The notes under the pieces were generated by a model that saw only the letters and a program-made list of their open reading frames with translations, was not told the DNA's origin and did no database searches. DNA of 61,792 nt from an uncultured Atopobiaceae bacterium (GTDB taxonomy: Bacteria; Actinomycetota; Coriobacteriia; Coriobacteriales; Atopobiaceae). This document shows, one piece after another, positions 3,575 to 29,364 of the stretch. Position 1 is the stretch's first letter; each line of letters opens with the position of its first letter. The stretch is taken from positions 1 through 61,792 of the forward strand of contig CANPVI010000001.1 in the NCBI GenBank assembly GCA_947581665.1. The letters run 5' to 3'. Made by a program: the position numbers and the translations under genes.

Positions 3575-3612
3575 ACCATACCACAAAATTCGTTTTGAGC
3601 CCAGCGAAACGG
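3575..3612 (-). promoter_or_regulatory. promoter module copy 1 (short form): GCTGGGCTC-16 nt-TATGGT
   Basis: Minus strand reads TTTCGCTGGGCTC then 16 nt then TATGGT, about 30 nt upstream of ATG 3545. Confidence 0.5.
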
Positions 3613-3666
3613 CTTGCCGAAAGAAAGAAGGGACAGCATTTCGCCGTCCGTCCTTTCGGTCGGTCT

Positions 3667-5274
3667 TTACTCTATGATGTCGGTGATGGTGATTCCGCAG
3701 CCGAAGTCATAGGTGAGTTCCTTGCCGTCCACCGTGATGCGGTTGACGACCTTTCGGAACATATCCCCATCGAACTCCGTCAGCTTGCCCTTTACGGCTA
3801 CCATGTCCCAGATGGCTTGGAATCTTTCGTTGGTGTGTTCGAGGTCCACTACTTGGAACGACCGCTTTTTCTGCTCCTGTTTAAGTGCTTCAATTTCGGC
3901 GATGAGCTGTTCCCTTTCTCTTTCTCCGCTGATGAGGTCTTCGGCGTTCTGCGCCGCTTTTACCGCCCTTACAAGCTGCCTTTCCTTTGCCGCTATCTTC
4001 TTGGCGAGTTCATCGTTTGCTTGGTCGGTCAGCCGTTCCGCAAGGGTTTCTTGGATGCTCTCGGTTATTCTTTGCACCATTCCGTCCTTGTCTTCTATCA
4101 GCATATTGACCACTCGGATAAAGGATGCGTGGATCTCCGATTCCTTGATGGCGAGCTGCGTGCAGGCATTGTTACCGTTCAGTTTGTGGTTCGAGCAAGT
4201 CCATGTCTTCACATAATTCTCGCCGCTGTAGTATCCGTGCCTGCGGAAGATGCATCCGCATTGGTAGCAGTACACTTTGCTCGACAGCGGATATTTTGAC
4301 GAGTATCCGCCCCTGCCCGACTTAGTGCAAGACCGCAGGCTGCGGCGGTATTCCATCTCTCGCTTCACCCTCTCGAACATTTCATCGCTGACGATTGCCT
4401 CATGGTCGTCCTCGACATAGTATTGCTGTGTGTCCGCCGATGCCGACCGCTTTTTCTTCACCCAAGGCTGATTGATGGTCTTTTGCAGAAGGGCATCGCC
4501 GATGTATTTTTCGTTCTTCAGCATACCCTCTATAGTGCTTTCATCCCACCGATCCAAGCCTGTCGGCGACTTGATTGCTCGGCTCTTCAGTTCTTCGCTT
4601 ATCATCCGATAACTGTACCCTGTAAGGTAGAGTTCGTAGATGAGCCGAACGACCTCGGCTTGCTCTTTGTTGATGACATACTCATGGTTGAGGACATCGT
4701 ATCCGTAGGTCTTTGCTTTCCGCACGAACCCCTGTTCATTGCGCCGCTGTATGCCCCAATTCACGCTGTCGCTCAGACTGTCCGATTCTTCCTGCGCTAT
4801 GGATGCGTACATGGTCAGCATGAAGTTCGTCCGCTTATCGTCCTGTAAGCTGTTCAGCTTCTCCTTCTCGAAGATTACAGGGATGCGCTTTTCTCGGAGT
4901 TGCTCGATGATGGTCAGGCTGTCCAAGACATTTCGGGCGAATCTTGATACCGACTTGACGAGTATCATGTCTATCTTGCCGTTCAGCGCATCGGCTATCA
5001 TCTCACGGAATCTCACCCTTTTCTTCATGCTCCGTCCTGAGATACCCTCATCGGCATAGACACCCACCATCTCCCAATCGGGGTTGGTCAGTATCAGCCG
5101 TGTGTAGTATTCCAACTGGGACTTGAAACTTGTCTGCTGTTCCTCTCTGCCCGTTGAGACTCTGGCATAAGCTGCCACCCTTTTCTTTTGGACAACGATT
5201 GGCGATTCGTCATCCACGAACAATCGTCTGGTGTCGGTCGCAGGGATCACCCTGATTTTTCTTTCTTCACTCAT
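3667..5274 (-). CDS. large serine recombinase (2nd of three; divergent from the other two)
   Basis: AAYARVSTGREEQQTSFKSQ catalytic region, recombinase domain and zinc ribbon (YCYQCGC..WTCSNH..NACTQ). Start set to ATG 5274 (MSEERK), overlapping the upstream stop (TGATG). Confidence 0.9.
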   Translation of the reverse strand: MSEERKIRVIPATDTRRLFVDDESPIVVQKKRVAAYARVSTGREEQQTSFKSQLEYYTRLILTNPDWEMVGVYADEGISGRSMKKRVRFREMIADALNGKIDMILVKSVSRFARNVLDSLTIIEQLREKRIPVIFEKEKLNSLQDDKRTNFMLTMYASIAQEESDSLSDSVNWGIQRRNEQGFVRKAKTYGYDVLNHEYVINKEQAEVVRLIYELYLTGYSYRMISEELKSRAIKSPTGLDRWDESTIEGMLKNEKYIGDALLQKTINQPWVKKKRSASADTQQYYVEDDHEAIVSDEMFERVKREMEYRRSLRSCTKSGRGGYSSKYPLSSKVYCYQCGCIFRRHGYYSGENYVKTWTCSNHKLNGNNACTQLAIKESEIHASFIRVVNMLIEDKDGMVQRITESIQETLAERLTDQANDELAKKIAAKERQLVRAVKAAQNAEDLISGEREREQLIAEIEALKQEQKKRSFQVVDLEHTNERFQAIWDMVAVKGKLTEFDGDMFRKVVNRITVDGKELTYDFGCGITITDIIE

Positions 5275-6806
5275 CAGCACACCTCCGTTACTGCCTTGAT
5301 ATCTATTGATTGTATTTCGTCTTCGCTTGTCGCCCAATACACGATGGTGACGTATGCCACCTCGCCTGATGTCAGGTGGTATGCGAAGTGTTCCCTGTCC
5401 ACAATTACAATTTTGCGGACGATTTGGTCGAACAGTTTGATGTCGAACTCTGCGATTTTCCCTGTTCGCGTGACCGCCGAGTTATATACTCGGAGGTCAT
5501 TCTGCGCCTTGACATTCTGCCCATTCGTTTCGAGCATATCCTTTTTCTGCTCTTCGGCTTTCACGATGCGGTTGAGCAGTTTCCTGTACTCGCCCTCAAT
5601 CTCTCCGTGTAGCAGTCCCCTTGCTTGGAGTTGCAGGTAGGTCTTTTCCTGATTGAGCATTTGGGTGATCTCTCGGTCGAGTTCCCTGACCGCATCCGTG
5701 ACTTGCATCTCCATAAGGGTTTTGCGCTTGCCTTGTATCATGTTGAAGATTTCCACGAATACCTTTTCGATGGTTTCCTTTTTTACATTTTCGCTTTTGC
5801 AAGCGTTCATCCCTCGGCTACCCTTGTAGTAGCACCCATACCGAACCCTTTTGTCTGTCCGCTTGATGCGGATATAGTTATGTCCGCATTTGCCGCAGAC
5901 GATTTTCCCCTTGAACGGATCGGGCTCTCGGTCTTCCTCTTTCACATACTCCGATGTCCTGTGCCGTAGCACCAACCGTTGGCAGTAGTCCCACATTTCT
6001 CGGCTCACTATCGGTTCGTGGTCATTCTCCACATAGTATTGCTGTGCCGCACCCATGTTTTTGATTTTCTTGCCGTCCGCCACCACGTACTTTTGGAGCA
6101 TGGCATCGCCCTTGTACTTTTCGTTCTTGATGATATATAGGACCGTGCTTGCCATGAACGGTCGCCCATGCGCCGAGGTATAGCCGTCTTTATTCAGTCG
6201 CCGTGCTATCTCCGCCGTGCCGTAGCCCTTGGCATACTCTTCGTATATCCGCTTGACGAGTTTCGCCTCTTCGGGGACGATTACGAGTTGCCCATCGTCA
6301 TTGAACTTGTAGCCGAGCGGGGTGTTCGGGTTCACGATGAGTTGTCCCTGCTCGAATCGCTTCTTGAATGTCCATTTGATGGCTTCGGACTTTTCCTCGT
6401 ATTCTTCCTGTGCTATCTGCGCCATCGTTACGAGCAGGATATTGTTGCGGTCCTTGATGGTGTGCAGATTCTCGGTTTCGAAGTACACAGGGATGTTGAG
6501 TTCCGTCAGTCGGCTGACCGCTCGTATCGTATCCAAGGTGCATCGCCCGAACCGCTTGATTGACTTGCACAGGATTAGGTCTATCTTATGCAATTCGGCA
6601 TCTTGCATCATCCGCTTGAAGTCCTTTCTTGCACCGATGAACCGACCGCTGATGCCATTGTCGATGTAGCACCCACAATTCACCATCTGCGGATCGGCAT
6701 CCATGACTTCGTTGAAGTGTCGTACCTGCGATTCGAGTGATACTTCCTGCCCATAGTTCTTGCTCACTCGGCAGTAGGCGACAGTTCGCAATTTTGTTTC
6801 GCTCAT
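5274..6806 (-). CDS. large serine recombinase (1st of three; paralogue-like to 2019..3545)
   Basis: VAYCRVSKNYGQEVSLESQ, ILCKSIKRFGRCTLD and CGKCGHNY..YGCYYKG..NACKS. Start set to ATG 6806 (GGAGG 8 nt upstream). The longer ORF-track N-terminus is a read-through of the promoter module. Confidence 0.9.
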   Translation of the reverse strand: MSETKLRTVAYCRVSKNYGQEVSLESQVRHFNEVMDADPQMVNCGCYIDNGISGRFIGARKDFKRMMQDAELHKIDLILCKSIKRFGRCTLDTIRAVSRLTELNIPVYFETENLHTIKDRNNILLVTMAQIAQEEYEEKSEAIKWTFKKRFEQGQLIVNPNTPLGYKFNDDGQLVIVPEEAKLVKRIYEEYAKGYGTAEIARRLNKDGYTSAHGRPFMASTVLYIIKNEKYKGDAMLQKYVVADGKKIKNMGAAQQYYVENDHEPIVSREMWDYCQRLVLRHRTSEYVKEEDREPDPFKGKIVCGKCGHNYIRIKRTDKRVRYGCYYKGSRGMNACKSENVKKETIEKVFVEIFNMIQGKRKTLMEMQVTDAVRELDREITQMLNQEKTYLQLQARGLLHGEIEGEYRKLLNRIVKAEEQKKDMLETNGQNVKAQNDLRVYNSAVTRTGKIAEFDIKLFDQIVRKIVIVDREHFAYHLTSGEVAYVTIVYWATSEDEIQSIDIKAVTEVC

Positions 6807-6838
6807 AAGCATTACCTCCATTTTCTTTGGTACGCCAA

Positions 6839-6920
6839 AGCATAGCGTAAAAGACAGAAAGAGCCCAGCGAAAACCGCCCCCAAATTAGACTTTTTACGG
6901 AATAATCGAAAGAATTTTAT
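6839..6920 (-). promoter_or_regulatory. promoter module copy 2, upstream of the recombinase operon
   Basis: Minus strand reads ..GGTTTTCGCTGGGCTC-16 nt-TATGCT, then leader hairpin CTTTGG-cgta-CCAAAG (6825..6840) before the SD. Confidence 0.55.
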
Positions 6921-6933
6921 GTGTCCCTCTGTC

Positions 6934-6968
6934 GTAAAAAAATAGATGTGCGGAGGTCAGTCCGCACA
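6934..6968 (-). terminator. rho-independent terminator ending the lysis/late operon
   Basis: Minus strand reads GTGCGGA-ctgacc-TCCGCAC followed by ATCTATTTTTTT. Confidence 0.7.
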
Positions 6969-7121
6969 CCCATTTTCAATGCCGTATTTTTTCTTCAATT
7001 TCAGCTCTATCGAGTCGTATTCCTCGGTGGTGATTACCCCTTTCCGCATGAGATTAAGGACGATCCCCAAGGCGCAGTTGAACTCGATGGTATTGACCGC
7101 CGCCCTTTCACTGTTTTCCAT
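6957..7121 (-). CDS. 54-aa ORF overlapping the holin 3' end (below ORF-track cutoff); unknown function, SHOCT-like GVITTEEY motif
   Basis: MENSERAAVNTIEFNCALGIVLNLMRKGVITTEEYDSIELKLKKKYGIENGCAD. GAGGA lies 5 nt before ATG 7121. The stop lies inside the terminator stem. Confidence 0.35.
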   Translation of the reverse strand: MENSERAAVNTIEFNCALGIVLNLMRKGVITTEEYDSIELKLKKKYGIENGCAD

Positions 7122-7413
7122 CGTTGTCCTCGCCATCCTTCTTTTCGAGTTGCTTGATGATTTGGTTTGCGCCCGTGGCGGTCAGTCCGCTTGCTCCGCC
7201 GATGACGATTGCCACGACCACGTTCGCCGCCGGGATGATGCTCGGCACGGCATAAAAGGCGACCACACCAAGCACCGCACCCAAGCCCGCCGCTATCAGC
7301 GGGATGAACCGCTTGAAGGTTTCGTTGCCCTTGACTGCGTACTTGATGATGTTGATTACCCAATAGACGATTGCCGCTATCGCGGGTACGCTGATTAACT
7401 CCAAATATTCCAT
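7108..7413 (-). CDS. phage holin (two hydrophobic helices, charged C-terminus)
   Basis: ..VPAIAAIVYWVINII..FIPLIAAGLGAVLGVVAFYAV..GGASGLTATGANQIIKQLEKKDGEDNDGKQ. Typical Firmicutes-phage holin architecture and position after the tail fibre. Confidence 0.8.
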   Translation of the reverse strand: MEYLELISVPAIAAIVYWVINIIKYAVKGNETFKRFIPLIAAGLGAVLGVVAFYAVPSIIPAANVVVAIVIGGASGLTATGANQIIKQLEKKDGEDNDGKQ

Positions 7414-7424
7414 GTTCCCCTCCG

Positions 7425-7721
7425 TTAATTTTTAGAATTTTGTTCAAGCAAGTATTCGTACATTTCCTGCTTGGTTTCGTTGTAGCTCTCCATTGCGTCA
7501 TGCATCTCGCCGTTGGTCTTTCCGTCCCTGATGGCTACCGCATTTGCGTATGTGAGCTTGCCGACCGCATCGATGGATTTGAGGATCAGATAATTCTCCC
7601 GCTCCTCCGCCTTGTCGCGCTCTTCGTCCCGCTTTGTCCGTTTCTTGAAAAACCGCTGCAAGAAAAAAAGCACCATCCCGCTGATGATGCTCCCCACTAT
7701 GCTTATGATTATCGCTACCAT
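7425..7721 (-). CDS. N-terminally membrane-anchored coiled-coil protein next to holin (function unknown)
   Basis: MVAIIISIVGSIISGMVLFFLQRFF followed by a charged helical region. Confidence 0.5.
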   Translation of the reverse strand: MVAIIISIVGSIISGMVLFFLQRFFKKRTKRDEERDKAEERENYLILKSIDAVGKLTYANAVAIRDGKTNGEMHDAMESYNETKQEMYEYLLEQNSKN

Positions 7722-7745
7722 TGTTTCCTCCTTCCCTCTCTCGAA

Positions 7746-8654
7746 TTACCAAATCGCCGAATATCCGCCGAGCTTGTACATAATGAGTTCCGTTGTGCAG
7801 GAGCCCGAATAGTTGCTGCTTGGAAAAGTAGTCGCCGATGATGACACTCGGAGATGGTATTTATTCGCCGTTGTGGTCACCGCTTCGCAGTATATCTGCA
7901 CGTTCTTCACCCCATCCAAATCCACGGTCGAGATGCCGCTGTACGATCCGCTTTTTGCATAAGTGCTGTTGCTCATCGTCCCCAAGCACGCGACACTCGT
8001 ATTGCCCGATGAGTTAGTCACTTTGAGAAAGCACAGGTAGATGCCCGTGCCGGGGATGTTGTATTGCTTTTCGAAACTGAATGTGGTTCTATCAAGCGTG
8101 AGTCCGGGGTTAAAGCTCGGTGTGTTTTTGAGGTCATAATAATCACCGCTCGTAGCCACCGCCGCAAGTCCCGTTATTTTGCCTACTCCGACCGAAGTGA
8201 CCTTTTCATCGGTGACCGCACCTGCGGCGAGTTTCTCCGTGGTTACTGCCCCATCCGCTATCTTGATTGTGGTCACGGCGAGGTCTTGCAGTTTGTCCGT
8301 CCGCACCGCTCCCGTGGCGATTTTTCCGTAGTTCACCGCATGGCTATCAATCTTGCCTTGCGTGATGGAGTTCGCCGCAATATCGTCCTTGTCAACGATG
8401 CTTTTGAAAGCCAATGTCCCGAAGTCCGCGAACCACTTTCGGAGTTTCCCGAATGCCACTTTCAGCGTGTCCCCGCTTGCGATGTTCTCTCTCGTACCGC
8501 TCTGGGTGCTTGTCACCGCCCCGTCTTGCACTTGCGACAAGGCGATTTTGATTTCGTTCAAGTAGCGTTCGTTCTCCGCAAGGATGTTGAAGATACTCGG
8601 TGTGACTTGGTCTTCGGCTTTGTAGTCATTTTTTGGATTCGTCCAAGTTGCCAT
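7746..8654 (-). CDS. tail fibre / receptor-binding protein
   Basis: Last structural gene before the lysis genes. Contains reiterated units ANSITQGKI, HAVNYGKI, GAVRTDKL, LAVTTIKI, GAVTTEKL and GAVTDEKV. Confidence 0.6.
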   Translation of the reverse strand: MATWTNPKNDYKAEDQVTPSIFNILAENERYLNEIKIALSQVQDGAVTSTQSGTRENIASGDTLKVAFGKLRKWFADFGTLAFKSIVDKDDIAANSITQGKIDSHAVNYGKIATGAVRTDKLQDLAVTTIKIADGAVTTEKLAAGAVTDEKVTSVGVGKITGLAAVATSGDYYDLKNTPSFNPGLTLDRTTFSFEKQYNIPGTGIYLCFLKVTNSSGNTSVACLGTMSNSTYAKSGSYSGISTVDLDGVKNVQIYCEAVTTTANKYHLRVSSSATTFPSSNYSGSCTTELIMYKLGGYSAIW

Positions 8655-8663
8655 GATTGCCTC

Positions 8664-10439: not shown

Positions 10440-10442
10440 AGG

Positions 10443-10799
10443 TCACCTCTCGGAGAAACTGACGGAGACGCTTTTCCACATCAGTCTGGACTTCGCCCAA
10501 TCGTAATGCGGCTGATAGGTCAGTCCCTCGGACCGTGCCGACATCGTCACGAGCTGTCCCGTTCCGTTGTCATGAAAGGAAATTTCGCAAAACTTATCGC
10601 TCTTCACGGCCGCCGTGAGCGTGGTCATATCTTCTTTCGAGAGATATTCCCAGCTCACATCGACCTTTCGCTTTGTCCCTATCACGTCCACTACCATCGT
10701 GCCGTCTACAGTCCGCTCCGCCTTGTCGAGAATTTCCTGCGAGAAAGACAGGTCGGTGGGTGCTTTGATTGTCTTCCCGTTTATCTTGAAAAAGTCCAT
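10443..10799 (-). CDS. short distal-tail (Dit-like) / phage tail family protein
   Basis: 118 aa, immediately after the tape measure. The call rests on synteny. Confidence 0.45.
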   Translation of the reverse strand: MDFFKINGKTIKAPTDLSFSQEILDKAERTVDGTMVVDVIGTKRKVDVSWEYLSKEDMTTLTAAVKSDKFCEISFHDNGTGQLVTMSARSEGLTYQPHYDWAKSRLMWKSVSVSFSER

Positions 10800-10800
10800 T

Positions 10801-19249: not shown

Positions 19250-19543
19250 TTATTTTTTCAGCGGCTTGCTGTCTATCAGCGAGGCGCAGACGTTGTCGAT
19301 TGCTTTCCACTCAGCCGAGCATTTCAGCACCGCATATTTCCCTTGCATCTGCGCTCTGTACACCTTGGCTTGGTGCGCCGCGAACTCTTCGGCGATGATT
19401 TCGGGTGCGTGTTCTACATCGGCGAGGATGCGCTTTTTGAGTTCTTCGACCTTCGCATCGTAGGCTGCGTTTTCCTCTGCGGTCGCGTTGTCATGGAATC
19501 CGTGGCTGTAGTATTTAAGTGTTCTGAAGATGTCTTTTGCCAT
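19250..19543 (-). CDS. hypothetical 97-aa protein (accessory cassette)
   Basis: MAKDIFRTLKYYSHGFHDNATAEENAAYDAKVEELKK..; AGGGAGAG SD; preceded by promoter module 3. Confidence 0.6.
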   Translation of the reverse strand: MAKDIFRTLKYYSHGFHDNATAEENAAYDAKVEELKKRILADVEHAPEIIAEEFAAHQAKVYRAQMQGKYAVLKCSAEWKAIDNVCASLIDSKPLKK

Positions 19544-19592: not shown

Positions 19593-19690
19593 ACAATACC
19601 GTAAAAAGAGGAAAGAGCCCAGCGAAAAGCGGTCAAAAACACAACTTTTTTTCGGAAAATTCCAAGAATTTTTGGCACGAAAAAACCACC
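19593..19690 (-). promoter_or_regulatory. promoter module copy 3
   Basis: Minus strand reads AAAAAGTTGTGTTTTTGACCGCTTTTCGCTGGGCTC-16 nt-TATTGT. Leader hairpin GGGGCAGCACCCC lies at 19561..19573. Confidence 0.55.
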
Positions 19691-20114: not shown

Positions 20115-20115
20115 C

Positions 20116-20307
20116 TTATTTGCCCTCCCTACCAAGTTGGTATGCCTGTTCGAGCATCGCTTTGAGTCCCCACACCGAGATGTCGAGGAAGTCTTCTTCA
20201 TCGTTCCACCGTCTTTCGAGGTCGCTGCGTTCTTCGACCACCACGCTGTTCTCCATCGCTATCTTGAGCAGTTCTTTTGCTGTCTTTGCGCTGATTTTCT
20301 TTTCCAT
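20116..20307 (-). CDS. hypothetical 63-aa protein
   Basis: MEKKISAKTAKELLKIAMENSVVVEERSDLERRWNDEEDF..; AAGGAG SD; first gene after promoter module 4. Confidence 0.5.
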   Translation of the reverse strand: MEKKISAKTAKELLKIAMENSVVVEERSDLERRWNDEEDFLDISVWGLKAMLEQAYQLGREGK

Positions 20308-20354: not shown

Positions 20355-20445
20355 AGTATAGCGTAAAGAACGGAAAGAGCCCAGCGAAATCGCGCTAAAA
20401 ACACAACTTTTTTCAAAGAAAAATCGGGGGATTTTTTCCTCCGAT
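20355..20445 (-). promoter_or_regulatory. promoter module copy 4
   Basis: AAAAAGTTGTGTTTTTAGCGCGATTTCGCTGGGCTC-16 nt-TATACT. Leader hairpin GGGGAACACCCC lies at 20324..20336. Confidence 0.55.
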
Positions 20446-20478: not shown

Positions 20479-20853
20479 TTAGCCGATTTTTACCACGAGT
20501 GCCGGGCGGTATTCGGTGACTTCTTTGTCCGTTTCGGAGTCGTACCTTTTGAACTGAGTGGGGATCATCTTCATGCCGTCCACGCTGCATCCCCGCTTGC
20601 AGAGTTCCCACAGCACTTCGGTCAGGCTGCTGAATGTCGAGCTGATGGTGATGCGGTCGAGGCCTTCCAGTCTGCAGGTGGCAAGGATGCCTTCGATGTC
20701 TTCTTCCCAGATGATGTCCGAGAAGTTGAGGTCGTCCGTTCCTGCCTTTCTGCTGTCCCTGTATGCCTTGTACAGCGTCCAGTTCACATCCTTGGCTTCG
20801 TTGCGTTGCTTGGGATCGTTCATGAGGTCTTCGTAGGTCTTTATGATTTTCAT
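20479..20853 (-). CDS. hypothetical 124-aa protein
   Basis: MKIIKTYEDLMNDPKQRNEAKDVNWTLYKAYRDSRKAG..; GAAGGAG SD. Confidence 0.6.
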   Translation of the reverse strand: MKIIKTYEDLMNDPKQRNEAKDVNWTLYKAYRDSRKAGTDDLNFSDIIWEEDIEGILATCRLEGLDRITISSTFSSLTEVLWELCKRGCSVDGMKMIPTQFKRYDSETDKEVTEYRPALVVKIG

Positions 20854-20899: not shown

Positions 20900-20990
20900 A
20901 GTATAGCGTAAAGAACAGAAAGAGCCCAGTGAAAATCGGCTAAAAACACAACTTTTTTCGGGAAAAACGAAAGAATTTTCGGCACTCTAA
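20900..20990 (-). promoter_or_regulatory. promoter module copy 5
   Basis: AAAAAGTTGTGTTTTTAGCCGATTTTCACTGGGCTC-16 nt-TATACT. Leader hairpin GGGCAACCGCCC lies at 20867..20878. Confidence 0.55.
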
Positions 20991-21974: not shown

Positions 21975-21986
21975 GGAGAAAAAGCC

Positions 21987-22304: not shown

Positions 22305-22334
22305 GGTCAAAGGCATCGGATTCGAGTCCTTTGG

Positions 22335-23672
22335 TCAGTCGAAAATCTCCACTCCGTCCCTGATGTGCCTGACATCGGCATTCGGATTCTGCTCTCGGAA
22401 TCGGCGCACGATGACATCGCAGTATCTCGGTTCGAGTTCGATTGCACAACACTTTCGGTTGAGCTGCTCGGCGGCAATCAAGGTCGAACCACTCCCGCAG
22501 AACGGCTCCAAGACCATGTCCCCCTCATGGCTGCTGTTATAGATGAGCTTGGCGCATAAGGTAATGGGTTTCATGGTCGGGTGGTCTGGGGACTTGCTCG
22601 GTTTGTTGTCCCTGATCACCGTGGTCGGCTTGCCGAGGATGTCTTCGAGTAGGTCTGCGAGTTCCGCCTTGGACATTTTCTTGATGTTCTCTCGGATGTC
22701 TTCGTAGACGGTCGGTAGCGTCCTATCGTCTATGAAGTAATGCCCCGCTCCTTCTTTCCATCCGTACAGTATCGGTTCATGGATCCATTGGTAGTCCTGT
22801 CTGCCAATGGTGAAGTGGTTTTTATACCACACGAGCGTCTGGGCATATTTCAGCCCCGCATCGGTCATCGCCTTGGTGAAGTTGACCGTTTCCTTGGTGC
22901 TGTGGAAGACATATATCGGTGCGCCGTTCTTCAACCCCTTCTCCGCCGCCTTATAAAAGGCACTCAAGAACTGGTAGAACTCATCGTCCGAAAGGTTATC
23001 GTTGGCGATGTTGCTGTTTTGTCGGCTACTCGAATGGTTCTTCCCCCTTATGCTCGATCCGTAGTCCACGTTGTACGGAGGATCGGTCACCATGATGTCC
23101 GCTTGCTTGCCGTCCAAAACTCGGTTCACATCCTCGAACTGTGTGCTGTCGCCGCACAACAGCCGATGCGTCCCCAAGAGCCACAAATCGCCCGTTTTGG
23201 TCTTCGGTTCGGCTGTTTCTTCGAGGGCAGTTTCGGCATCGAAATCATCTTCATGCACGTTCTCCATACTGCCGCTGCCGAACAGTTCCTGCGCTTCGGC
23301 AAGGTCGAAACCCGTGAGGGTGATGTCAAATCCGCTCCCGTCCAAATCACGGAGTAGATTCGCCAAGAGGTCGGTATCCCACTCGCCGCTGATTTTGTTC
23401 AAGGCGATGTTGAGAGCCTTTTCCTTGCTCTCTTCGAGGTCCACCACCACGCAGTCCACCTCCGTGTAGCCGAGGTCCTTCATCACGGTCAGCCGTTGGT
23501 GTCCGCCTACTACCTTGCCTGTCCGTTTGTTCCAGATGATAGGCTCGACATAGCCGAACTCCAAAATGCTCCGTTTGAGCTTCTCGTACTCGGCATCGCC
23601 GGGTTTGAGTGCTTTCCTCGGATTGTACTCCGCCGCCTTAAGGTCGGCTACTTGCTTTTTCTCAATCTCCAT
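22335..23672 (-). CDS. ParB-like nuclease domain fused to an N6-adenine/N4-cytosine DNA methyltransferase
   Basis: N-terminus ..AEYNPRK..VVGGHQRL.. (ParB/Srx fold). TDPPY catalytic motif. C-terminal LEPFCGSGST SAM motif. Start is ATG 23672 (GGAGG). Confidence 0.85.
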   Translation of the reverse strand: MEIEKKQVADLKAAEYNPRKALKPGDAEYEKLKRSILEFGYVEPIIWNKRTGKVVGGHQRLTVMKDLGYTEVDCVVVDLEESKEKALNIALNKISGEWDTDLLANLLRDLDGSGFDITLTGFDLAEAQELFGSGSMENVHEDDFDAETALEETAEPKTKTGDLWLLGTHRLLCGDSTQFEDVNRVLDGKQADIMVTDPPYNVDYGSSIRGKNHSSSRQNSNIANDNLSDDEFYQFLSAFYKAAEKGLKNGAPIYVFHSTKETVNFTKAMTDAGLKYAQTLVWYKNHFTIGRQDYQWIHEPILYGWKEGAGHYFIDDRTLPTVYEDIRENIKKMSKAELADLLEDILGKPTTVIRDNKPSKSPDHPTMKPITLCAKLIYNSSHEGDMVLEPFCGSGSTLIAAEQLNRKCCAIELEPRYCDVIVRRFREQNPNADVRHIRDGVEIFD

Positions 23673-23731
23673 TTTTCCTCCAAAATAATGACCACACCGC
23701 ATCGGTGTGGCCGTTCGTTTTTGCTGTCCGC

Positions 23732-23935
23732 TTATCTGTGTTCGGGTAACTGCCCGTCATCGACCAAGATGGCATACAAGATTCCGCTGTAATTGAATCT
23801 CTCCATCGTTGCCTTCATTTTGTCGTAGATTTTCTGCATCTCGGCTTGGCTTGCCTTCGCCCTGATTGCCGTTTCGTATTCATACACGAGTTGCTCTTCG
23901 AGAGCGCAGTCTTCATCGATTATAATGTTCGCCAT
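23732..23935 (-). CDS. hypothetical 67-aa protein
   Basis: MANIIIDEDCALEEQLVYEYETAIRAKASQAEMQKIYDKMK..; internal ATG directly after the upstream stop. Confidence 0.45.
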   Translation of the reverse strand: MANIIIDEDCALEEQLVYEYETAIRAKASQAEMQKIYDKMKATMERFNYSGILYAILVDDGQLPEHR

Positions 23936-23942
23936 GACTCTC

Positions 23943-24248
23943 TCACCTTGCCTTTTTGATGATGCCTGTGGATCTCGCCCAAGTGTAGCCGTCAAGGTCC
24001 ACCACGATGCTGTATGACACGTCTTCGCTGTCGATGCGGATGCATCTCCGTTCGCCCTTCTCCGTTTCGCCGCTGATGTCCGCATTCGCTTTCAGGAACT
24101 CATAGTCGCCCATGAGGTCTTCGCTGAACTTTACGAACTCCGCTCGGTCAAGGATGATCCGCTTTTCTACTTTGACCGCTATCTTTTCGCCGTCTTCATG
24201 GAGGTAATGCTCGATTGACCTCGCCTTATGCACCATTTTGATTTTCAT
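23943..24248 (-). CDS. hypothetical 101-aa protein
   Basis: GAAGGAGAAC SD. MKIKMVHKARSIEHYLHEDGEKIAVKVEK.. Confidence 0.6.
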   Translation of the reverse strand: MKIKMVHKARSIEHYLHEDGEKIAVKVEKRIILDRAEFVKFSEDLMGDYEFLKANADISGETEKGERRCIRIDSEDVSYSIVVDLDGYTWARSTGIIKKAR

Positions 24249-24288
24249 GCCGTTCTCCTTCGGGCATCTGCCCTTGTTTTTTTATGCA

Positions 24289-24376
24289 ATTATAGCGTAA
24301 ACAACCGAAAGAGCCCAGAGAAATGCGGCCTAAAACACAGGTTTTTTACAAGAAAAACGCTCGGATTCCCAAGCGT
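24289..24376 (-). promoter_or_regulatory. promoter module copy 6
   Basis: AAAACCTGTGTTTTAGGCCGCATTTCTCTGGGCTC-16 nt-TATAAT. Leader hairpin GGGCAGATGCCC lies at 24262..24273. Confidence 0.55.
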
Positions 24377-25165
24377 TCAGTCTTCAATGACGATGCAATT
24401 TACTCTCTGCGAGTGCGCCGTGCAAGCGTCTATCGCTATAATACCCTTTCCGTAGTATGGCGTGAAGTCCGCATCATCCTCGAACTCCGTGCCTTTCCCC
24501 TCGATCTTGGCGTGTCCGTAGGAGCAATGCCAATGCCCGCACACGATGGTCTTCCCTTCCTCTATCACTCCGTCCTGCGCCGCCGCCATTCCGTTATACC
24601 AACGGGAGAGTGCGAACTCTTCTTTCGGCTGTTCCCGCCAATTCGGTATCGGCAAGTATCGTGCCGAGTATCGGTTGACGAGTATCTTTTGGCAAGGTAT
24701 CCATCCGTGGGTGAAGATGTAATTCGGGGTTTCGTAGTAGTCGAGCATTGCGGGGATGAGCTTCTTGAAGTATGGTGTGTTCTCCATCTTCCTTGCCGTC
24801 CGCTCTGGATACAAGCAAGCCTCCGCAAGCGATTGCCCCGTGAGTTGCAGAATCGTATCAATCGTTCCGTTGCTCCAATGGTGGGTGAAGAAGATGCTAC
24901 TGTCATCGGTCAGCCACTTCGTTGCGTTCTGCACCAGTTCCTCGGTGAGGTCTTCGTGGTTTCCCCGTATAAGGATGAGCTGTCCCTTGGCTTGCTCCCC
25001 CACCATGAATTCTTGGAGTGCCACCGCTTCCCTGCCACGGTCGAACAGATCCCCGCAGACAAGGAGTTTGTGCGGCTCCTTATCGTAAAAGTATCCTTTT
25101 TCTTTGAGTGCCGCCACCATCTCCGTGTAGAACCCGTGGGTGTCGGCTAAAACATAATATCTCAT
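24377..25165 (-). CDS. calcineurin-like metallophosphoesterase (Ser/Thr phosphatase / diadenosine-tetraphosphatase-like)
   Basis: Motifs VLADTHG, GDLFDRG, GNHE and ..GHWH.. in canonical order. Confidence 0.85.
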   Translation of the reverse strand: MRYYVLADTHGFYTEMVAALKEKGYFYDKEPHKLLVCGDLFDRGREAVALQEFMVGEQAKGQLILIRGNHEDLTEELVQNATKWLTDDSSIFFTHHWSNGTIDTILQLTGQSLAEACLYPERTARKMENTPYFKKLIPAMLDYYETPNYIFTHGWIPCQKILVNRYSARYLPIPNWREQPKEEFALSRWYNGMAAAQDGVIEEGKTIVCGHWHCSYGHAKIEGKGTEFEDDADFTPYYGKGIIAIDACTAHSQRVNCIVIED

Positions 25166-25174
25166 TTGCCTATC

Positions 25175-25203
25175 ATTATAGCGTTTTTTGGCTTATTTAT
25201 CAA
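25175..25203 (-). promoter_or_regulatory. sigma-A-type promoter TTGATA-17-TATAAT for the phosphoesterase gene
   Basis: Minus strand reads TTGATAaataagccaaaaaacgcTATAAT, directly after the terL stop. Confidence 0.55.
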
Positions 25204-25215
25204 CCATTTGGGCGG

Positions 25216-26766
25216 CTAAATGACGATTATCCCCCTTTCGTTATACACGCTGTCCGTGCCGCCTTGGTTGCGTATCGCACGGTCCAGAGCCATGACGAGT
25301 GCCACCGCTCCGTCTATGCGCTCCGTGGACTTCTCTTTGTCCATCTTGATGTTGCCCGCAGGATCCGTGCGGACGAAGACGTTGTCCATCATCCACCGCA
25401 AAGGCACATTCCCGCCGTGCGCGATTTTCTGCTCAAGCACGAGCTTCATGAGTTCCTTTGTCGGTGGCGACATATCCTTGAACCCCTGACCGAACGGCAC
25501 GACCGTGAACCCCATCCCTTCGAGATTCTGCGTCATCTGCACCGCTCCCCATCGGTCAAAGGCGATTTCCTTGATGTTGTACTTTGTGCCGAGGTCCTCT
25601 ATAAAGGTTTCGATGTATCCGTAGTGGATGACATTCCCCTCGGTGGTTATGACCTGCCCCTTTGCTTTCCATGTGTCGTATGGAACGTGGTCACGCCGCA
25701 CTCGGAGGTCTATGGTGTCTTCGGGGATCCAAAAGAACGGCAAGACCATGTATTTATCGTCTTCGTCCAAAGGCGGAAAGACCAACACAAAGGCGGTGAT
25801 GTCCGTGCTGCTTGATAGGTCGAGTCCACCGTAGCACTCCCGCCCTTTCAGCCGTTCCGCATCCACGGCGAAGTCGCACTTGTCCCATGCATCCATAGGC
25901 ATCCAACGAACGCTTTGCTTTACCCATTGGTTCAGTCGCAGTTGGCGGAAGAGGTTTTCCTCCGCCGGGTTCTCTTTGGCGGACTCGTATGCGGTCCGCA
26001 GTTTTTCTATGTCCACCGTCACTCCGAGAGACGGATTTGCTTTCCGCCACACCGATTCGTCCGACCAATCATCGTCATCCTCTGCTCCGTATATCACTGG
26101 GTAGAATGTTTTGTCATGCTTTCGCCCTTCGAGGATGTCCTTTGCTTTTTGGTGGACTTCCCAACAGATGCTGTTCCGATCCGTTCCCGCCGTGGTTATA
26201 AGGAAGAACAGGGGTTGCTTTCTCGCATCGCCAGAGCCGTGAGTCATGACATCGTATAGGGCTCGGTTCGGCTGCGCATGGAGTTCATCGAACACGACTC
26301 CGTGGACATTCAGTCCGTGCTTGGTGTACGATTCCGCCGACAGCACCTGATAAAACGAATTCAGCGGCAGATAGACGAGCCGTTTCTGGCTCATCACAGG
26401 CTTGATGCGCTTTTTGAGTGCCGGGCATTGCTCCACCATATTGCAGGCGACATCGAAGACGATGCTTGCCTGCTGTCTGTCCGCCGCACAGCCGTACACC
26501 TCCGCACCCCACTCTCCATCCCCTGCGAGGAGATAAAGGGCGACAGCGGCCGCAATTTCGCTCTTCCCTTGCTTTTTGGGTATCTCTACATAGGCGGTGT
26601 TGTATTGCCTATATCCGTTGTCCTTTACTGTTCCGAATATATCTCGGATGATTTTATCTTGCCAAGGCAAGAGTTCAAACGGTACGCCGTGCCAAGTGCC
26701 TTTTGTGTGTTTTAAGGAGTTGATAAAGGCAACGGCACGGTCCGCAAGCTGCTGATTGTATGCCAT
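25216..26766 (-). CDS. terL: terminase large subunit
   Basis: 516 aa. ..GTWHGVPFELLPWQDKII..VEIPKKQGKSEIAAAVALYLL.. (Walker A-like) and a C-terminal nuclease region. Confidence 0.9.
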   Translation of the reverse strand: MAYNQQLADRAVAFINSLKHTKGTWHGVPFELLPWQDKIIRDIFGTVKDNGYRQYNTAYVEIPKKQGKSEIAAAVALYLLAGDGEWGAEVYGCAADRQQASIVFDVACNMVEQCPALKKRIKPVMSQKRLVYLPLNSFYQVLSAESYTKHGLNVHGVVFDELHAQPNRALYDVMTHGSGDARKQPLFFLITTAGTDRNSICWEVHQKAKDILEGRKHDKTFYPVIYGAEDDDDWSDESVWRKANPSLGVTVDIEKLRTAYESAKENPAEENLFRQLRLNQWVKQSVRWMPMDAWDKCDFAVDAERLKGRECYGGLDLSSSTDITAFVLVFPPLDEDDKYMVLPFFWIPEDTIDLRVRRDHVPYDTWKAKGQVITTEGNVIHYGYIETFIEDLGTKYNIKEIAFDRWGAVQMTQNLEGMGFTVVPFGQGFKDMSPPTKELMKLVLEQKIAHGGNVPLRWMMDNVFVRTDPAGNIKMDKEKSTERIDGAVALVMALDRAIRNQGGTDSVYNERGIIVI

Positions 26767-26780
26767 TTACTCCCCTTTGC

Positions 26781-26811
26781 GCAAAAATAAGGAAGGGACG
26801 AATCCCTTCCT
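26781..26811 (-). terminator. rho-independent terminator immediately upstream of terL
   Basis: Minus strand reads GGAAGGGA-ttcg-TCCCTTCC followed by TTATTTTT, 15 nt before the terL ATG. Confidence 0.65.
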
Positions 26812-26839
26812 GTGAACACGCTATTTTTGGTTTTGTCGG

Positions 26840-27271
26840 TTAGGCTCTCATCCGCGACTGAGTGTCCTTGATAGCCAAGTCGAGGTATTTCGGATCGATG
26901 CCGACGTCATCGTATCCTTCGAGGATCGTATGGTAGTAGAACTCCATCGGCAGTTCGGGTTCGCCGCTGTTCATGATATACACCATCGCCTCCACCGTCT
27001 TCCCTTTGAGTTCGACCGACACCATTTCCTTTCGGTAAAGGTGCGGGTATCCCTCGTAGATGTCGAGTGCCTGTTCATCCGTCTTTGTGATCTCCCACAC
27101 TCCGACTGGTGTTTCCGCACCCTTTTTCTTTTCGATGGTAGCCACCCGTCTAAAGGTCAGTTGGTAGTCTTTCAGCATTCCGATTCCGACCACTTTGGCG
27201 GTGGGACAGCGTCTTGCCATCTGCGCCAAGTTGAGGTTGCTCCCGTATGCTACATACAGTTTCGTTGCCAT
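26840..27271 (-). CDS. gamma-glutamylcyclotransferase (AIG2/GGCT-like)
   Basis: MATKLYVAYGSNLNLAQMARRCP..VWEI..LDIYEGYP..Y.. Start is ATG 27271 (AGGAGAA). Confidence 0.8.
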   Translation of the reverse strand: MATKLYVAYGSNLNLAQMARRCPTAKVVGIGMLKDYQLTFRRVATIEKKKGAETPVGVWEITKTDEQALDIYEGYPHLYRKEMVSVELKGKTVEAMVYIMNSGEPELPMEFYYHTILEGYDDVGIDPKYLDLAIKDTQSRMRA

Positions 27272-27312
27272 TGTCTTGTTCTCCTGTGGATTTTTTATTT
27301 CCTCGGTGGCGG

Positions 27313-28233
27313 TTATGCCGCCACCGTAGGTCTGCCATTCCTGAACGCGATGTCGCCTTCGAGGTTTTCGAGTAGGAACTTTCTTGCCGTTTCGAACTCT
27401 TCGCCTATCATCCCCATGCGGAGTAGCCATGTGCGGAAGGTGTATTTTTCGTTCGCCGTTTCCGTCTTCTTGGCGGTCGCTCCGCGTTGCGTGAGTGCTT
27501 GGTGGCTGATGGCGAGGCACAGTTGGATGTAGGTTTTTATCTTGCCTGCGTGAGTCGTGCCGTTGAAGCATCTGAACTCGATGCCCTTGCCCTGCCATAA
27601 GCTGTGCAGGTTGAGTGCATGGTAGCGGCTTGCGTTGTAGTGGTCAGTCCTTGACCTATAGCCATCGTCACAGTCTTCGTACCATAATCTCTGGACTGTC
27701 CGAGTGCTTGTCGGCTTGGAGCGGTTCATCGCCGCTACGAACTCTTGCTCACTCTTTTTGCACCATCTCCCTGCCCTGTCTGTGCTTACTCCGAGTGCCT
27801 TGAAAAGCAGGTCTTCTTTGCTGTTCATGATGTTGACGAGGTTTCGGAGGGTTTTGGCGGTGTATTGCTCCGCTCCGACGTGGACGTGGATCCCGCAGCT
27901 TGCGTTGGCGATTGCACCTTTGTGGCGGAGCTGCCTGACAATCTCTTGGATGTCTTCGATGTCATCCCATCCGCATATCGGTGTTACGACTTCGCACCTG
28001 TAGTTGTCCTGTTCGTCAACTGGGATGTCTGCGTGGTCTTTCCGCTCAGCCTTGATGCTCGAATCGTACATGATTGTCCATTTCCGTCCTTGGCGGTCGA
28101 TGGCTTTGTACTTTCCGTAGAACCCTCCGTCATAGTGCCATGTGCCGTTGTAGTAGTCGGCGATGACCTTTGCGGCTTGCTCTCTGGTGATGCCTGTGAG
28201 TTCGATTTCGACTCCGAATTTTTGTGTTTTCAT
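27313..28233 (-). CDS. putative amidoligase (Amidoligase_2 / glutamine-synthetase-like fold)
   Basis: MKTQKFGVEIELTGITREQAAKVIADYY..CGIHVHVGA..; family-typical N-terminal G-x-E-x-E and H-x-H. Start is ATG 28233. Confidence 0.7.
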   Translation of the reverse strand: MKTQKFGVEIELTGITREQAAKVIADYYNGTWHYDGGFYGKYKAIDRQGRKWTIMYDSSIKAERKDHADIPVDEQDNYRCEVVTPICGWDDIEDIQEIVRQLRHKGAIANASCGIHVHVGAEQYTAKTLRNLVNIMNSKEDLLFKALGVSTDRAGRWCKKSEQEFVAAMNRSKPTSTRTVQRLWYEDCDDGYRSRTDHYNASRYHALNLHSLWQGKGIEFRCFNGTTHAGKIKTYIQLCLAISHQALTQRGATAKKTETANEKYTFRTWLLRMGMIGEEFETARKFLLENLEGDIAFRNGRPTVAA

Positions 28234-28282
28234 AGCGTGTTCTCCTTTTTGGGGTTCTTTCCGTCCCCCGTTTTGCAAGCAA

Positions 28283-28372
28283 ACAATACCGTAAAAACAC
28301 ACAAGAGCCCAGCGAAAATCGGCCGAAATTCGAAAGTTTTTGAAAGAATTTTTCGGGAATTTTTACGGCTTG
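28283..28372 (-). promoter_or_regulatory. promoter module copy 7
   Basis: ..CGGCCGATTTTCGCTGGGCTC-16 nt-TATTGT. Leader stem GGGG..CCCC lies at 28251..28268. Confidence 0.55.
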
Positions 28373-28575
28373 TAGCCAATCCCCTTGAAGTTCCTTTCAC
28401 CCCTCTTCACAGCCTCCATTTCGGCTTTCTGCGCCGCTTGGTAGGCGGGGTTTTCCTGCTCTTTCGCTTTGCATTCCAGACAGATGCAGTCTTCGTTGAA
28501 CATAGACATCGTCCGTCCACCCGTCAATTCCTTGCCGCAGCGGTCGCAATATTTTTGGCTGAAGAATTTGTCCAT
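28363..28575 (-). CDS. 70-aa zinc-ribbon protein
   Basis: CDRCGK..17 aa..CICLEC; start abuts the upstream stop. Confidence 0.55.
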   Translation of the reverse strand: MDKFFSQKYCDRCGKELTGGRTMSMFNEDCICLECKAKEQENPAYQAAQKAEMEAVKRGERNFKGIGYKP

Positions 28576-29280
28576 TTATATCTCCGTCACTTCCGTTATA
28601 TTTTTCAATTTGTAGGGGTTCAGCACGACCTCCGATTCGTTTCTTCCCATGAAGAATGCCAAGATGTCCTGCTTGCCGATCTCCGCTTTGTACACCGTAC
28701 CGCTTTGTCCGAATCGGTTGGCGAACCACTTCGCTTTCGCTTTATCCAAGGTCCACGAGAGAGCTTTCACATTCCTCGCATTATAGGGTGTTACCCCTCG
28801 GTAGACCGTCACACTTTCTCCGAGTTCGGCGAGTCGCTTGCTTTCCTCGGCATCCATCATGACCGCCTTGTCCGCTTCCTTGAACATAGACACCAATTCC
28901 TTCTTGCTGACGTTGGTATCCATGTTCGGGTTCTCGGCTTGCATCCATGCATCTGCGAGGATCAGCGACAGGTCTTTTGCCGATAGATGCTCTTTCGCAT
29001 ATTTCAGGAACGTAAGCGCATAGGTCTTATTCAGCAACATGAATATCCCGTATGCGTCTTCCGCCCTATCTATCTGCTTGCCGATAAATTCCCGCCATGC
29101 AGTTAGGTCTTCGGTGCTTGCGGTGATGTCCACGATCCGCTTGATGCCGGGGAGCATCGTCACCCCCGATGAGGCGAATGGGTGTTGCACGATCATTGGC
29201 GAATATTCCGTCTTATGGACTTCGATATTCAAGAGCCAATGCGCAACTGCCTTTACCTGACTCAGATCCGTCTTTTCCAC
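28576..29280 (-). CDS. hypothetical protein with a C-terminal R-S-E (ADP-ribosyltransferase-like) motif set
   Basis: ..VTVYRGV..ALSWTL..RNESEVVLNP.. Start set to GTG 29280 (GAAGGAGAAC 4-6 nt upstream, same SD context as sister cassettes). Confidence 0.45.
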   Translation of the reverse strand: MEKTDLSQVKAVAHWLLNIEVHKTEYSPMIVQHPFASSGVTMLPGIKRIVDITASTEDLTAWREFIGKQIDRAEDAYGIFMLLNKTYALTFLKYAKEHLSAKDLSLILADAWMQAENPNMDTNVSKKELVSMFKEADKAVMMDAEESKRLAELGESVTVYRGVTPYNARNVKALSWTLDKAKAKWFANRFGQSGTVYKAEIGKQDILAFFMGRNESEVVLNPYKLKNITEVTEI

Positions 29281-29322
29281 TTCGTTCTCCTTCGGACAGT
29301 CCTTTCCTGTCCATTTGCCCAA

Positions 29323-29364
29323 ACAATAGCGTAATCGGCGGACGAAGTCCAGTGATTTTCGACC
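29323..29364 (-). promoter_or_regulatory. promoter module copy 8 (degenerate: CACTGGACTT-16 nt-TATTGT)
   Basis: Same 16-nt spacing as the other copies. Leader hairpin GGACAG-gaaagga-CTGTCC lies at 29294..29312. Confidence 0.45.

Follow-up and report, generated by a model that had tools for sequence, protein, structure and literature searches.

A repeated candidate late promoter in a prophage related to Ca. Heliusvirales and the factors that may read it

How does a prophage restart transcription many times within its late region, and which factor recognizes the sites at which it does so? The question is raised by a stretch of 61,792 nucleotides deposited as DNA of an uncultured Atopobiaceae bacterium (GenBank assembly GCA_947581665.1, contig CANPVI010000001.1, positions 1 to 61,792; the whole stretch is referred to here as the window). 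A minus-strand prophage, assigned here to a gut bacterium of the Christensenellales, spans ~2.0 to ~49.6 kb of the window, and its late half carries eight copies of a short element, the cassette, in which a box at the -35 position stands at a fixed distance from a TATnnT box. A first-pass annotation proposed that the box is recognized by a sigma-region-4-like protein of 239 amino acids (aa) encoded at 34649..35368. The analysis presented here suggests that the cassette is very probably a promoter, by its position a late one, and that it probably requires a dedicated factor. The favored reading combines a dedicated phage factor with a sigma-A-type -10 element and takes the N-terminal domain of the 239-aa protein (N-domain), rather than its sigma-4-like C-terminal domain (C-domain), as the candidate reader within the window; its probability is put at roughly one in three (0.35).

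The cassette and its eight copies

The pattern CTGGRCT-N17-TATNNT has exactly eight matches on the minus strand of the window, compared with 0.03 expected from 100 dinucleotide shuffles (maximum 1), and an nhmmer profile built from the eight copies finds no extra copy in the window. The -10 boxes lie at 3575, 6839, 19593, 20355, 20900, 24289, 28283 and 29323, all on the minus strand, where the first-pass annotation had placed them, and their hexamers agree with its listing. Its description of the 9-mer GCTGGGCTC as invariant was slightly overstated since the 9-mer is exact in just five copies (copy 20900 reads ACTGGGCTC, copy 24289 TCTGGGCTC and copy 29323 ACTGGACTT), but the CTGG.CT core is truly invariant. 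The columns that do not vary across the eight copies are TC.CTGG.CT followed by TT..G.TAT..T. A 13-mer, TTTCGCTGGGCTC, is exact in five copies, has one mismatch in two and is degenerate at 29345. The upstream segment said to be shared, AAAAAGTTGTGTTTTT, is clean in three copies and recognizable in two to three others. The distance of 25-45 nucleotides (nt) given previously is wrong, as 26-49 nt separate the end of the -10 box from the start codon (40 nt for copy 24289, by reading of the sequence). Two features absent from the earlier description are the motif TTTACG(G/C) directly 5' of TAT, which equals the box in its degree of conservation, and a GC hairpin found in the leaders of six of the eight copies. 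Every copy is intergenic, is co-oriented with its gene and is followed by a strong Shine-Dalgarno (SD) site at the downstream start codon. The order of elements is a terminator, an A/T-rich tract, TTTCG-CTGGRCTY, 11 nt, TTTACGS-TATnnT, a leader with the GC hairpin and the SD site.

All copies fall in the late half of the prophage (3.5-29.4 kb) and none in the replication/early half (30-49 kb). In each, 16 nt separate the box from the -10 hexamer. The first copy in the direction of transcription (29323..29398, -) has the degenerate box ATCACTGGACTTC and TATTGT and lies ahead of a 234-aa gene (28576-29280, phrog_4776). The second (28283..28358, -; TTTCGCTGGGCTC, TATTGT) precedes an amidoligase gene (27313-28233), which is followed by a GGCT-like gene and the gene for the large terminase subunit, TerL (25216-26766). 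The third (24289..24364, -; TTTCTCTGGGCTC, TATAAT) is ahead of a 101-aa gene (23943-24248) and then a ParB-N6/N4 methylase gene (22335-23702), while the fourth (20900..20975, -; TTTCACTGGGCTC, TATACT) and the fifth (20355..20430, -; TTTCGCTGGGCTC, TATACT) precede a DUF7698 gene (20479-20853) and a DUF6900 gene (20116-20307), respectively. The sixth (19593..19668, -; TTTCGCTGGGCTC, TATTGT) is ahead of a 97-aa gene (19250-19543) and the portal, protease, capsid, tape measure and tail/lysis genes. The seventh (6839..6914, -; TTTCGCTGGGCTC, TATGCT), which is without the leader hairpin, precedes two large serine recombinase genes (5274-6812 and 3667-5280), and the eighth (3575..3650, -; TTTCGCTGGGCTC, TATGGT), in which the -16 region is a canonical TGTGG, precedes a third (2019-3545). 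These three tandem recombinases (508, 537 and 512 aa; 2019-6812, -) stand at the prophage end, and two of the three gene starts have a cassette. A fourth, shorter serine recombinase is encoded on the opposite strand, beyond the early region (50716-51843, +).

Conservation among relatives

Relatives include 93 stretches of IMG/VR viral contigs that hold the exact box plus TAT and whose DNA identity to the window is just 75-80%; loci are cited here by number. In these 93 viral loci nhmmer reports 199 cassette matches, which represent 109 distinct modules. Clustering leaves 52 independent copies, or 117 with a wider locus set, from related prophages of Christensenellales. Information content in the 52 independent copies peaks at TTTCG-CTGG.CT and ACGG-TAT..T, and the consensus reads as an A/T-rich tract (66% A+T), TTTCG-CTGG(G/A)CT(C/T), 11 variable nt and TTTACG(G/C)-TAT..T. 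Downstream of the -10 it continues with a TTACAAAA-like start region, often a GGG..CCC hairpin, AAGGAG and ATG, and the median distance from cassette to start codon in the 117-copy set is 45 nt. The flanks of the 52-117 independent copies are near random while the box, 8-13 nt long, is nearly invariant.

The structured part of the cassette is the leader hairpin downstream of the core, and only there. The folding energy of leaders 18 nt or longer is -7.2 kcal/mol, compared with -1.6 kcal/mol when shuffled, and 63 of 73 such leaders reach -5 kcal/mol or lower. RNAalifold finds no conserved structure in the core (-0.34 kcal/mol, one compensatory pair), and Rfam has no match at the cassettes, the sole match in the window being a S-adenosylmethionine (SAM) riboswitch elsewhere. 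Terminator-like hairpins with perfect stems occur within 130 nt upstream of 31 of 117 copies and in none of the shuffled sequences.

In a genome collection, multi-copy loci confirmed by nhmmer belong to Christensenella and Christensenellaceae metagenome-assembled genomes, Pumilibacter, Anaerocaecibacter, Borkfalkiaceae and unclassified Clostridia. Related prophages are present in isolates of Pumilibacter and of Anaerocaecibacter muris. Single-copy matches in unrelated phyla were rejected as chance because 16 specified bases were sought in 596 Gb; none was confirmed by nhmmer save a marginal Paenibacillus locus (L110, E = 0.0056). A Blautia Heliusvirales phage has no cassette.

Evidence for a late promoter

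Fixed spacing, a single orientation, an intergenic position and a downstream SD site and start codon are the properties on which the promoter assignment is based, and the cassette is very probably a promoter. Its timing is suggested by copy 19593, the sole promoter-like element before the 12.5-kb operon that runs from portal to lysis genes. Since there is no other cassette or promoter-like repeat between 19593 and 6839, this copy would head both the structural and the lysis genes, which argues that the cassette is a promoter of the lytic cycle. For the same reason it should not be constitutively active in a lysogen. Simpler, AT-richer relatives have a similar layout. In L231 and L237, where the TerL, portal, protease and capsid genes are contiguous, there are two cassettes each, one after HNH and before the cluster of the small terminase subunit gene (terS) and the other ~650 nt upstream of the TerL gene, while L254 has one variant cassette, upstream of the TerL gene. 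Read from the sequence, the location of the cassette in these three loci is that of a late promoter.

The first-pass annotation regarded the -35-position box as a poor sigma-A hexamer that is nevertheless better conserved than the -10, and this is borne out. TGGGCT or TGGACT matches TTGACA at three of six positions, is nearly invariant and shows no drift toward the consensus. The -10 side, on the other hand, looks sigma-A-like. TATnnT is found in eight of eight copies with a 17-nt spacer, positions -9 and -8 vary freely, position -14 is always G, and some copies have canonical TGTGn variants (TTTTGTGGTATGGT in copy 3575 and CTTGTGATATGTT in L056). The prophage also contains canonical sigma-A promoters, TTGACA-17-TATAAT (12 of 12 positions) at 29751..29779 (-) before a 74-aa open reading frame (ORF; 29471-29695) and TTGATA-17-TATAAT at 25203-25175. 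Because the box is nearly invariant and departs from the consensus while canonical sigma-A promoters occur in the same prophage, a dedicated reader is plausible, and the cassette probably requires one. The first-pass claim of a dedicated factor is therefore plausible insofar as the box is conserved beyond what sigma-A needs, but its choice of the sigma-region-4-like domain as reader is unsupported. By-eye comparison of the core with consensus sequences taken from general knowledge for sigma-54, SigB/D/E/F/G/H/K, extracytoplasmic function (ECF) and TcdR-type sigma factors yielded none that fits.

An Ltr-type activator with repeats of its own

The 239-aa protein (34649..35368, -) consists of an N-domain (approximately residues 1-136) and a variable C-domain (approximately residues 160-239), and its gene lies at the canonical position of an Ltr late activator. 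In the order of transcription, a primase-helicase gene (35816-37792) and a gene for 95 aa are followed by the activator gene, HNH (34160-34546) and terS (33264-33761), so that the activator gene ends the replication module directly upstream of HNH and terS. The DNA-binding domain is also of the kind expected for this family: the C-domain resembles sigma-70 region 4, ArpU and RinA, with a Pfam Sigma70_r4_2 match at E = 5e-6 and weak NCBIfam matches to ArpU and RinA, and Foldseek aligns it with sigma-4 structures at TM-scores of ~0.75-0.8 normalized to target, a relationship that is clear by fold and weak by sequence. Foldseek searches with models of the full 239 aa and of the N-domain returned solely sigma-4 structures for the C-domain and no solved-fold match for the N-domain. 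The N-domain is an acidic alpha/beta domain conserved at 53-65% identity across the family and also occurs as a stand-alone ORF of ~143 aa. The C-domain, in contrast, exists in at least two types which cannot be aligned with each other by tblastn and whose recognition helices differ. In L095, which carries at least 13 cassettes, and in many other loci the two parts are separate adjacent ORFs, with a C-domain type that tblastn cannot align to that of the window.

Directly 3' of the activator gene there is a second type of promoter (34577..34631, -). Three GGTTGAC and one AGTTGAC direct repeats (34588-34631) end 5 nt before a TATAAT (34582-34577) that lies ahead of HNH and terS. Experiments have defined repeats at this location as the sites that late activators of the Ltr family recognize (PMC3753634), and the GGTTGAC repeats are predicted to be the binding sites of the sigma-4-like domain. 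Relatives have direct repeats of their own right after the activator gene, namely GTAAAC in L094 and L214, GATACG in L096, TATACC in L095, GTGAACGA in L231, GTGAAACGA in L254 and GTAGACT in the Blautia Heliusvirales phage. In every relative examined the repeats are 6-8 nt long, lie a few bases before a TATAAT upstream of HNH and vary together with the C-domain type (coordinates include 8085-8168 in L094, 10005-10087 in L095 and 6600-6670 in L310; further loci are L096, L028, L231 and L254).

The cassettes do not have such repeats. Neither GTTGAC-type nor relative-specific repeats are seen upstream of them, just generic A/T tracts, and the CTGGGCTC box is identical across phages with different C-domain types. 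The sigma-4-like domain most likely drives the HNH-TerS operon, and because of these two observations it most likely does not read the cassettes. The first-pass proposal that this domain reads the box is thus not borne out, in view of its variability, its private repeats and the invariance of the box.

The 400-nt spacer between HNH and terS contains a cluster of AATCAAAAA-type repeats and two hairpins (~33990-34130, -) that are kept in a distant relative (L254, 1900-2060). This cluster may be a cos or terminase recognition region.

Candidates for the reader of the box

The favored reading is a two-step scheme. The sigma-4-like domain would act one step earlier than the cassettes, as an LtrA-type activator that binds the GGTTGAC repeats after its own gene and thereby turns on the HNH-TerS-methylase-SAM-synthetase operon. 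Each copy of the cassette would then be a self-contained unit that restarts transcription in the lytic cycle. Its -35-position box would be read by a dedicated trans-acting factor specific to the phage family, following class-II or MotA-like logic, and the N-domain, the sole candidate within the window, could be that reader, either directly or through remodelling of RNA polymerase. The small SigK-like sigma factor that most relatives encode would be accessory, the A/T-rich tract would be UP-like, and the hairpin often found upstream would terminate the preceding unit. As the cassette controls the lysis genes, such a factor must not become available until the prophage is induced.

The N-domain is a candidate because of its distribution. 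Among 80 viral loci sampled without bias through their TerL relatedness, 34 include the sequence upstream of HNH. Five of these have both the N-domain and the cassette, none has the N-domain alone, one (L230) has the cassette alone and 28 have neither, so that the cassette accompanies the N-domain in 5/5 loci and occurs in 1/29 loci without it. Additionally, a 457-aa protein with an N-domain-like start adjoins an isolated cassette in both L144 and L137.

Several points weigh against this reading. The N-domain is acidic (~29 D/E versus 18 K/R) and has no match to a solved fold, and direct reading of DNA by it is therefore unsupported. L230 has a variant of the cassette, but its Ltr protein is without the N-domain and the locus has no sigma gene. 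The co-occurrence is confounded by shared ancestry because any clade-specific gene would correlate with the cassette. The near-invariant A-16 C-15 G-14 exceeds an ordinary sigma-A -16 region and could mark the extended -10 of an alternative sigma factor. The start sites and the timing of the cassettes are those we infer from the DNA, and integrase genes behind a late-only promoter are unusual for a temperate phage. Finally, a genuine sigma factor is encoded exactly before the first cassette in ~40 related loci, and such a protein is the simplest reader of a bipartite promoter.

That sigma factor is the basis of the highest-ranked alternative, itself somewhat unlikely: the cassette would be the cognate promoter of the small SigK-like sigma, whose gene would be the last in the Ltr-driven operon and would have been lost from the window, where the late genes would be either silent or served in trans by a co-resident sigma-positive prophage. 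It is encoded in ~40 related loci, and ~80% of relatives carry such a gene just ahead of the first cassette. The protein belongs to the sigma-70 family, has 174-185 aa and matches Pfam regions 2 and 4; its gene immediately precedes the first cassette and overlaps the SAM synthetase gene at that gene's end (L222 8613-9170; L094 14082-14624; L217 18020-18553; L226 10001-10540; L228 10001-10534). In a profile search its nearest named cellular relatives, next after the block of phage proteins (E < 1e-52), are sporulation SigK proteins at 33-38% identity, and an "ECF-like" label based on size and a Pfam Sigma70_ECF match was dropped for this reason. Two conserved parts at a fixed spacing are what one expects of an element read by a sigma factor, and cassettes are identical in phages whose sigmas share 44-62% identity. 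L222, whose Ltr protein is 96% identical to that of the window, encodes the sigma, and homology between this locus and the window breaks off precisely at the stop codon of the SAM synthetase gene. At this junction (29667..30281) the SAM synthetase stop (30281) abuts an unrelated convergent double-HTH_3 gene (29667-30275, +).

The evidence on the other side begins with the window, in which six-frame ORFs reveal no homologue of the small sigma. At least ten other cassette-bearing loci have no sigma at that position (L225, L208, L158, L149, L212, L187, L098, L033, L099 and L126), and the simpler phages L231, L237 and L254 are also without it, yet their TerL-structural operon depends on the cassette. 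The same box types occur in phages that have the sigma and in those that do not, and a link between box type (CTGGGCTC versus CTGGACTT) and presence of the sigma gene was accordingly rejected. Moreover, the -10 side with its TATnnT and TGTGn variants is sigma-A-like, unlike the SigK consensus, which is CATA---TA.

The place of the sigma gene has a content of its own. At 29471-30275 the Cro/CI-type double-HTH_3 gene (+) adjoins the perfect sigma-A promoter and the 74-aa ORF, and L222 has a shorter HTH_3 gene besides its sigma.

An unlikely alternative is a host-encoded factor, either an alternative sigma or an activator, that becomes active solely on induction or stress and reads the box. Phages, sigma-less prophages and isolated cassettes would then all plug into a single host regulon. 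This would account for a box that stays the same whichever regulators a phage encodes, whether or not it has the sigma and, in L230, although the N-domain is missing, as well as for cassette-plus-gene units in non-phage contexts that have neither phage candidate. However, the copies confirmed by nhmmer in the genome scan are all in prophages of the family or in the element described below that pairs the cassette with a 156-aa gene and resembles a satellite; none precedes an ordinary host gene or a host sigma operon, and no host version of the small sigma was seen. On logical grounds a host factor that is active at all times is excluded, given that the cassette controls the lysis genes.

It is improbable that the cassette is a plain sigma-A promoter in which a UP-like A/T tract and an extended -10 offset the weak -35 and the box has been conserved through recent duplication or homologous recombination of the cassette, not through recognition by a factor. 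The TATnnT with its G at -14 and the A/T-rich tract are indeed sigma-A features, and the cassettes have clearly spread as units. Descent as units does not sit well with flanks that are near random around a nearly invariant box, nor with the retention of the box in phages that are just ~36-44% identical in the adjacent regulator protein, and constitutive sigma-A activity before lysis genes would be lethal in a lysogen.

More improbable still is recognition of GCTGGGCTC at -35 by the sigma-region-4-like helix-turn-helix of the 239-aa protein, as in the first-pass annotation. The C-domain has the sigma region-4 fold and a gene of this type is always upstream of the cassette-bearing late regions, but the types cannot be aligned with each other by tblastn and differ in their recognition helices while the box is identical, and each has the private repeats of the documented Ltr arrangement right after its gene, repeats that are not seen before cassettes when the sequences are read.

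That the element is not a promoter at all, but a recombination site for serine recombinases or a structured RNA or leader element, is very improbable: the window has genes for three to four serine recombinases and the repeats are direct and flank gene cassettes, but the element keeps a fixed geometry relative to the SD site and start codon, its core has neither an Rfam match nor conserved structure, recombination between direct copies would delete essential genes, and it is found in relatives and isolated contexts without these recombinases.

Accessory genes and movement of the cassette

The first-pass annotation also viewed the element as a portable expression unit that accompanies the acquisition of morons. 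Portability is supported by cassette-plus-gene units in unrelated contexts and by variable gene content around a constant cassette. A near-identical cassette with a 156-aa gene (MASIYGF...) is present in L139 (5221-5800), L200 (1146-1720), L210 (6346-6940), L144 (5462-6006), L100, L143 and L137, where the flanks are unlike those of the phage family. Genes nearby encode a reverse transcriptase, a KAP NTPase and a HATPase-STAS protein, and there is also a mini-element whose products are a tyrosine integrase, a DnaC-like protein and an HTH_36 protein; in L162 the same cassette precedes an integrase-like ORF. These loci with the 156-aa gene may be phage-inducible satellite or defense modules. In the phages, the genes between terS, the TerL gene and the portal gene vary while the cassette stays constant; the TerL and portal genes are adjacent in L231, L254 and L310 and 6 kb apart in the window.

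The moron label fits part of the set. Copies 29323, 28283, 24289, 20900 and 20355 combine a promoter of their own, terminator-like hairpins upstream and variable content, as morons do, but copy 19593 heads the portal-to-lysis operon and copies 6839 and 3575 precede recombinases. Expression from a repressed prophage is unlikely because the same promoter heads an operon that contains the lysis genes.

A broader possibility, which is rather doubtful, is that the cassette is the receiver of a shared "late signal". A single phage-encoded factor acting in trans (the small sigma, the N-domain protein or both) might switch on targets of three sorts: late genes of the phage that encodes it, sigma-less prophages like that of the window, and chromosomal or satellite-like islands with the 156-aa gene. 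If true, this would be a cross-element regulon in Christensenellales linking helper phages, dependent prophages and phage-inducible defense or satellite modules.

Setting of the prophage

The early part of the prophage encodes, in the order of transcription, a LexA-like repressor, a Y-family polymerase, an SNF2 helicase and the primase-helicase. The 239-aa protein, HNH, TerS, a C5 methylase and the SAM synthetase follow. The late part comprises cassettes with add-on genes, TerL, further cassettes, portal, protease, HK97-type capsid, tape measure and tail genes, and the three large serine recombinases. TerL is ~79% identical to that of Ca. Heliusvirales phages of Lachnospiraceae, and databases of cultured phages have no match for the cassette-rich region or the 239-aa protein.

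The first 2 kb of the window are host-like DNA with 61% G+C. Beside the prophage is a low-G+C block (43-47%; 52419-61295) that encodes an Mrr-helicase fusion, a 780-aa HATPase_c_3 protein, a C5 methylase and a WYL-WCX regulator and looks like a defense island. The early region contains the SAM riboswitch (RF00162; 45821-45907, -), which scores 51.9 bits against a gathering score of 44.4 and lies just upstream of an ORF (45327-45680) and of the LexA-like and UmuC-like genes. The prophage that carries this riboswitch also encodes the SAM synthetase (30281-31399) and three DNA methylases. Genes for a LexA-like S24 repressor, a Y-family (UmuC-like) polymerase and a YolD-like protein stand in a row at 43101-45304 (-), and the same order is found in L220 and L225. 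In L226 (4656-7454) a C5 DNA methylase is interrupted by an intein with Pfam Intein_splicing and Hint_2 matches.

Relation to known systems and implications

The layout combines three known themes, namely an Ltr-type activator step, a multi-copy dedicated late promoter and promoter cassettes that resemble those of morons and of promoter-early stem-loop (PeSL) elements. Late activators of the Ltr type in Gram-positive temperate phages include RinA, LtrC, ArpU, LtrA (Sigma70_r4) and LtrB (DUF1492) (PMC3753634, PMC3152322). The prophage resembles these systems in the activator gene at the end of the replication module before HNH and terS, the sigma-region-4-like domain and the phage-specific direct repeats of ~7 nt after the gene. 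Known Ltr systems, however, have one activated promoter and one long late transcript, whereas the late region here is broken by terminators and would be restarted eight times (at least 13 in one relative) by an invariant second promoter without Ltr repeats. The activator also differs in its extra conserved N-terminal domain, either fused or adjacent.

A sigma-A-type -10 with a fixed-distance box in place of the -35, in many copies per genome, is a likeness to the middle promoters of T4, where a MotA box is combined with sigma appropriation by AsiA, and to the class-II activated late promoters of Mu (Mor/C) and P2/P4 (Ogr/Delta). Those systems depend on a phage factor that acts in trans, and P2/P4 satellites respond to the activator of the helper. 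Here the box is centered at approximately -35, not -30 or -55, and the host is a Gram-positive anaerobe; Pfam and PHROG scans of ~70 window proteins revealed no homologues of MotA, AsiA, Mor or Ogr. Phage sigma factors that direct late promoters include gp28 and gp33/34 of SPO1 and gp55 of T4, and there are Bacillus phages with sporulation-like sigmas. Most relatives of the prophage are like these in that a SigK-related small sigma is encoded before the first cassette and a multi-copy bipartite promoter precedes the late genes, but the window and at least ten cassette-bearing relatives have no sigma gene and the -10 is like that of sigma-A, not that of SigK.

Morons as described by Hendrix are autonomous promoter-gene-terminator insertions that are expressed from a repressed prophage. 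PeSLs are mobile regulatory cassettes of the T4 type with early sigma-70 promoters of virulent T4-like phages. The likeness to both consists of add-on genes between essential late genes with a promoter and terminator of their own, and of a promoter-hairpin unit that can mediate gene shuffling. Unlike a moron promoter, the cassette would also drive the structural and lysis genes and so be active in the lytic phase. No concept is overturned because dedicated late promoters and morons that carry promoters are well known.

Nothing on the cassette motif was found in the literature on Christensenella prophage promoters and Heliusvirales. A paper on Ca. Heliusvirales makes no mention of promoters or sigma factors, and no description of transcription control was found for the lineage. 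Ca. Heliusvirales is a very widespread lineage of gut phages, and for its Christensenellales-infecting branch the cassette provides a precise, searchable signature of late promoters. The signature is part of a two-tier layout, in which an Ltr activator with private repeats is followed by an invariant multi-copy promoter, and it comes with three concrete candidates for a reader: the small sigma, the N-domain and a host factor. Accessory genes travel with the cassette, including into islands that resemble satellites or defense islands. In uncultured gut prophages the motif can serve to flag late transcription units and "late morons", and the cassette offers a phage-inducible promoter for a group of hosts without genetic tools.

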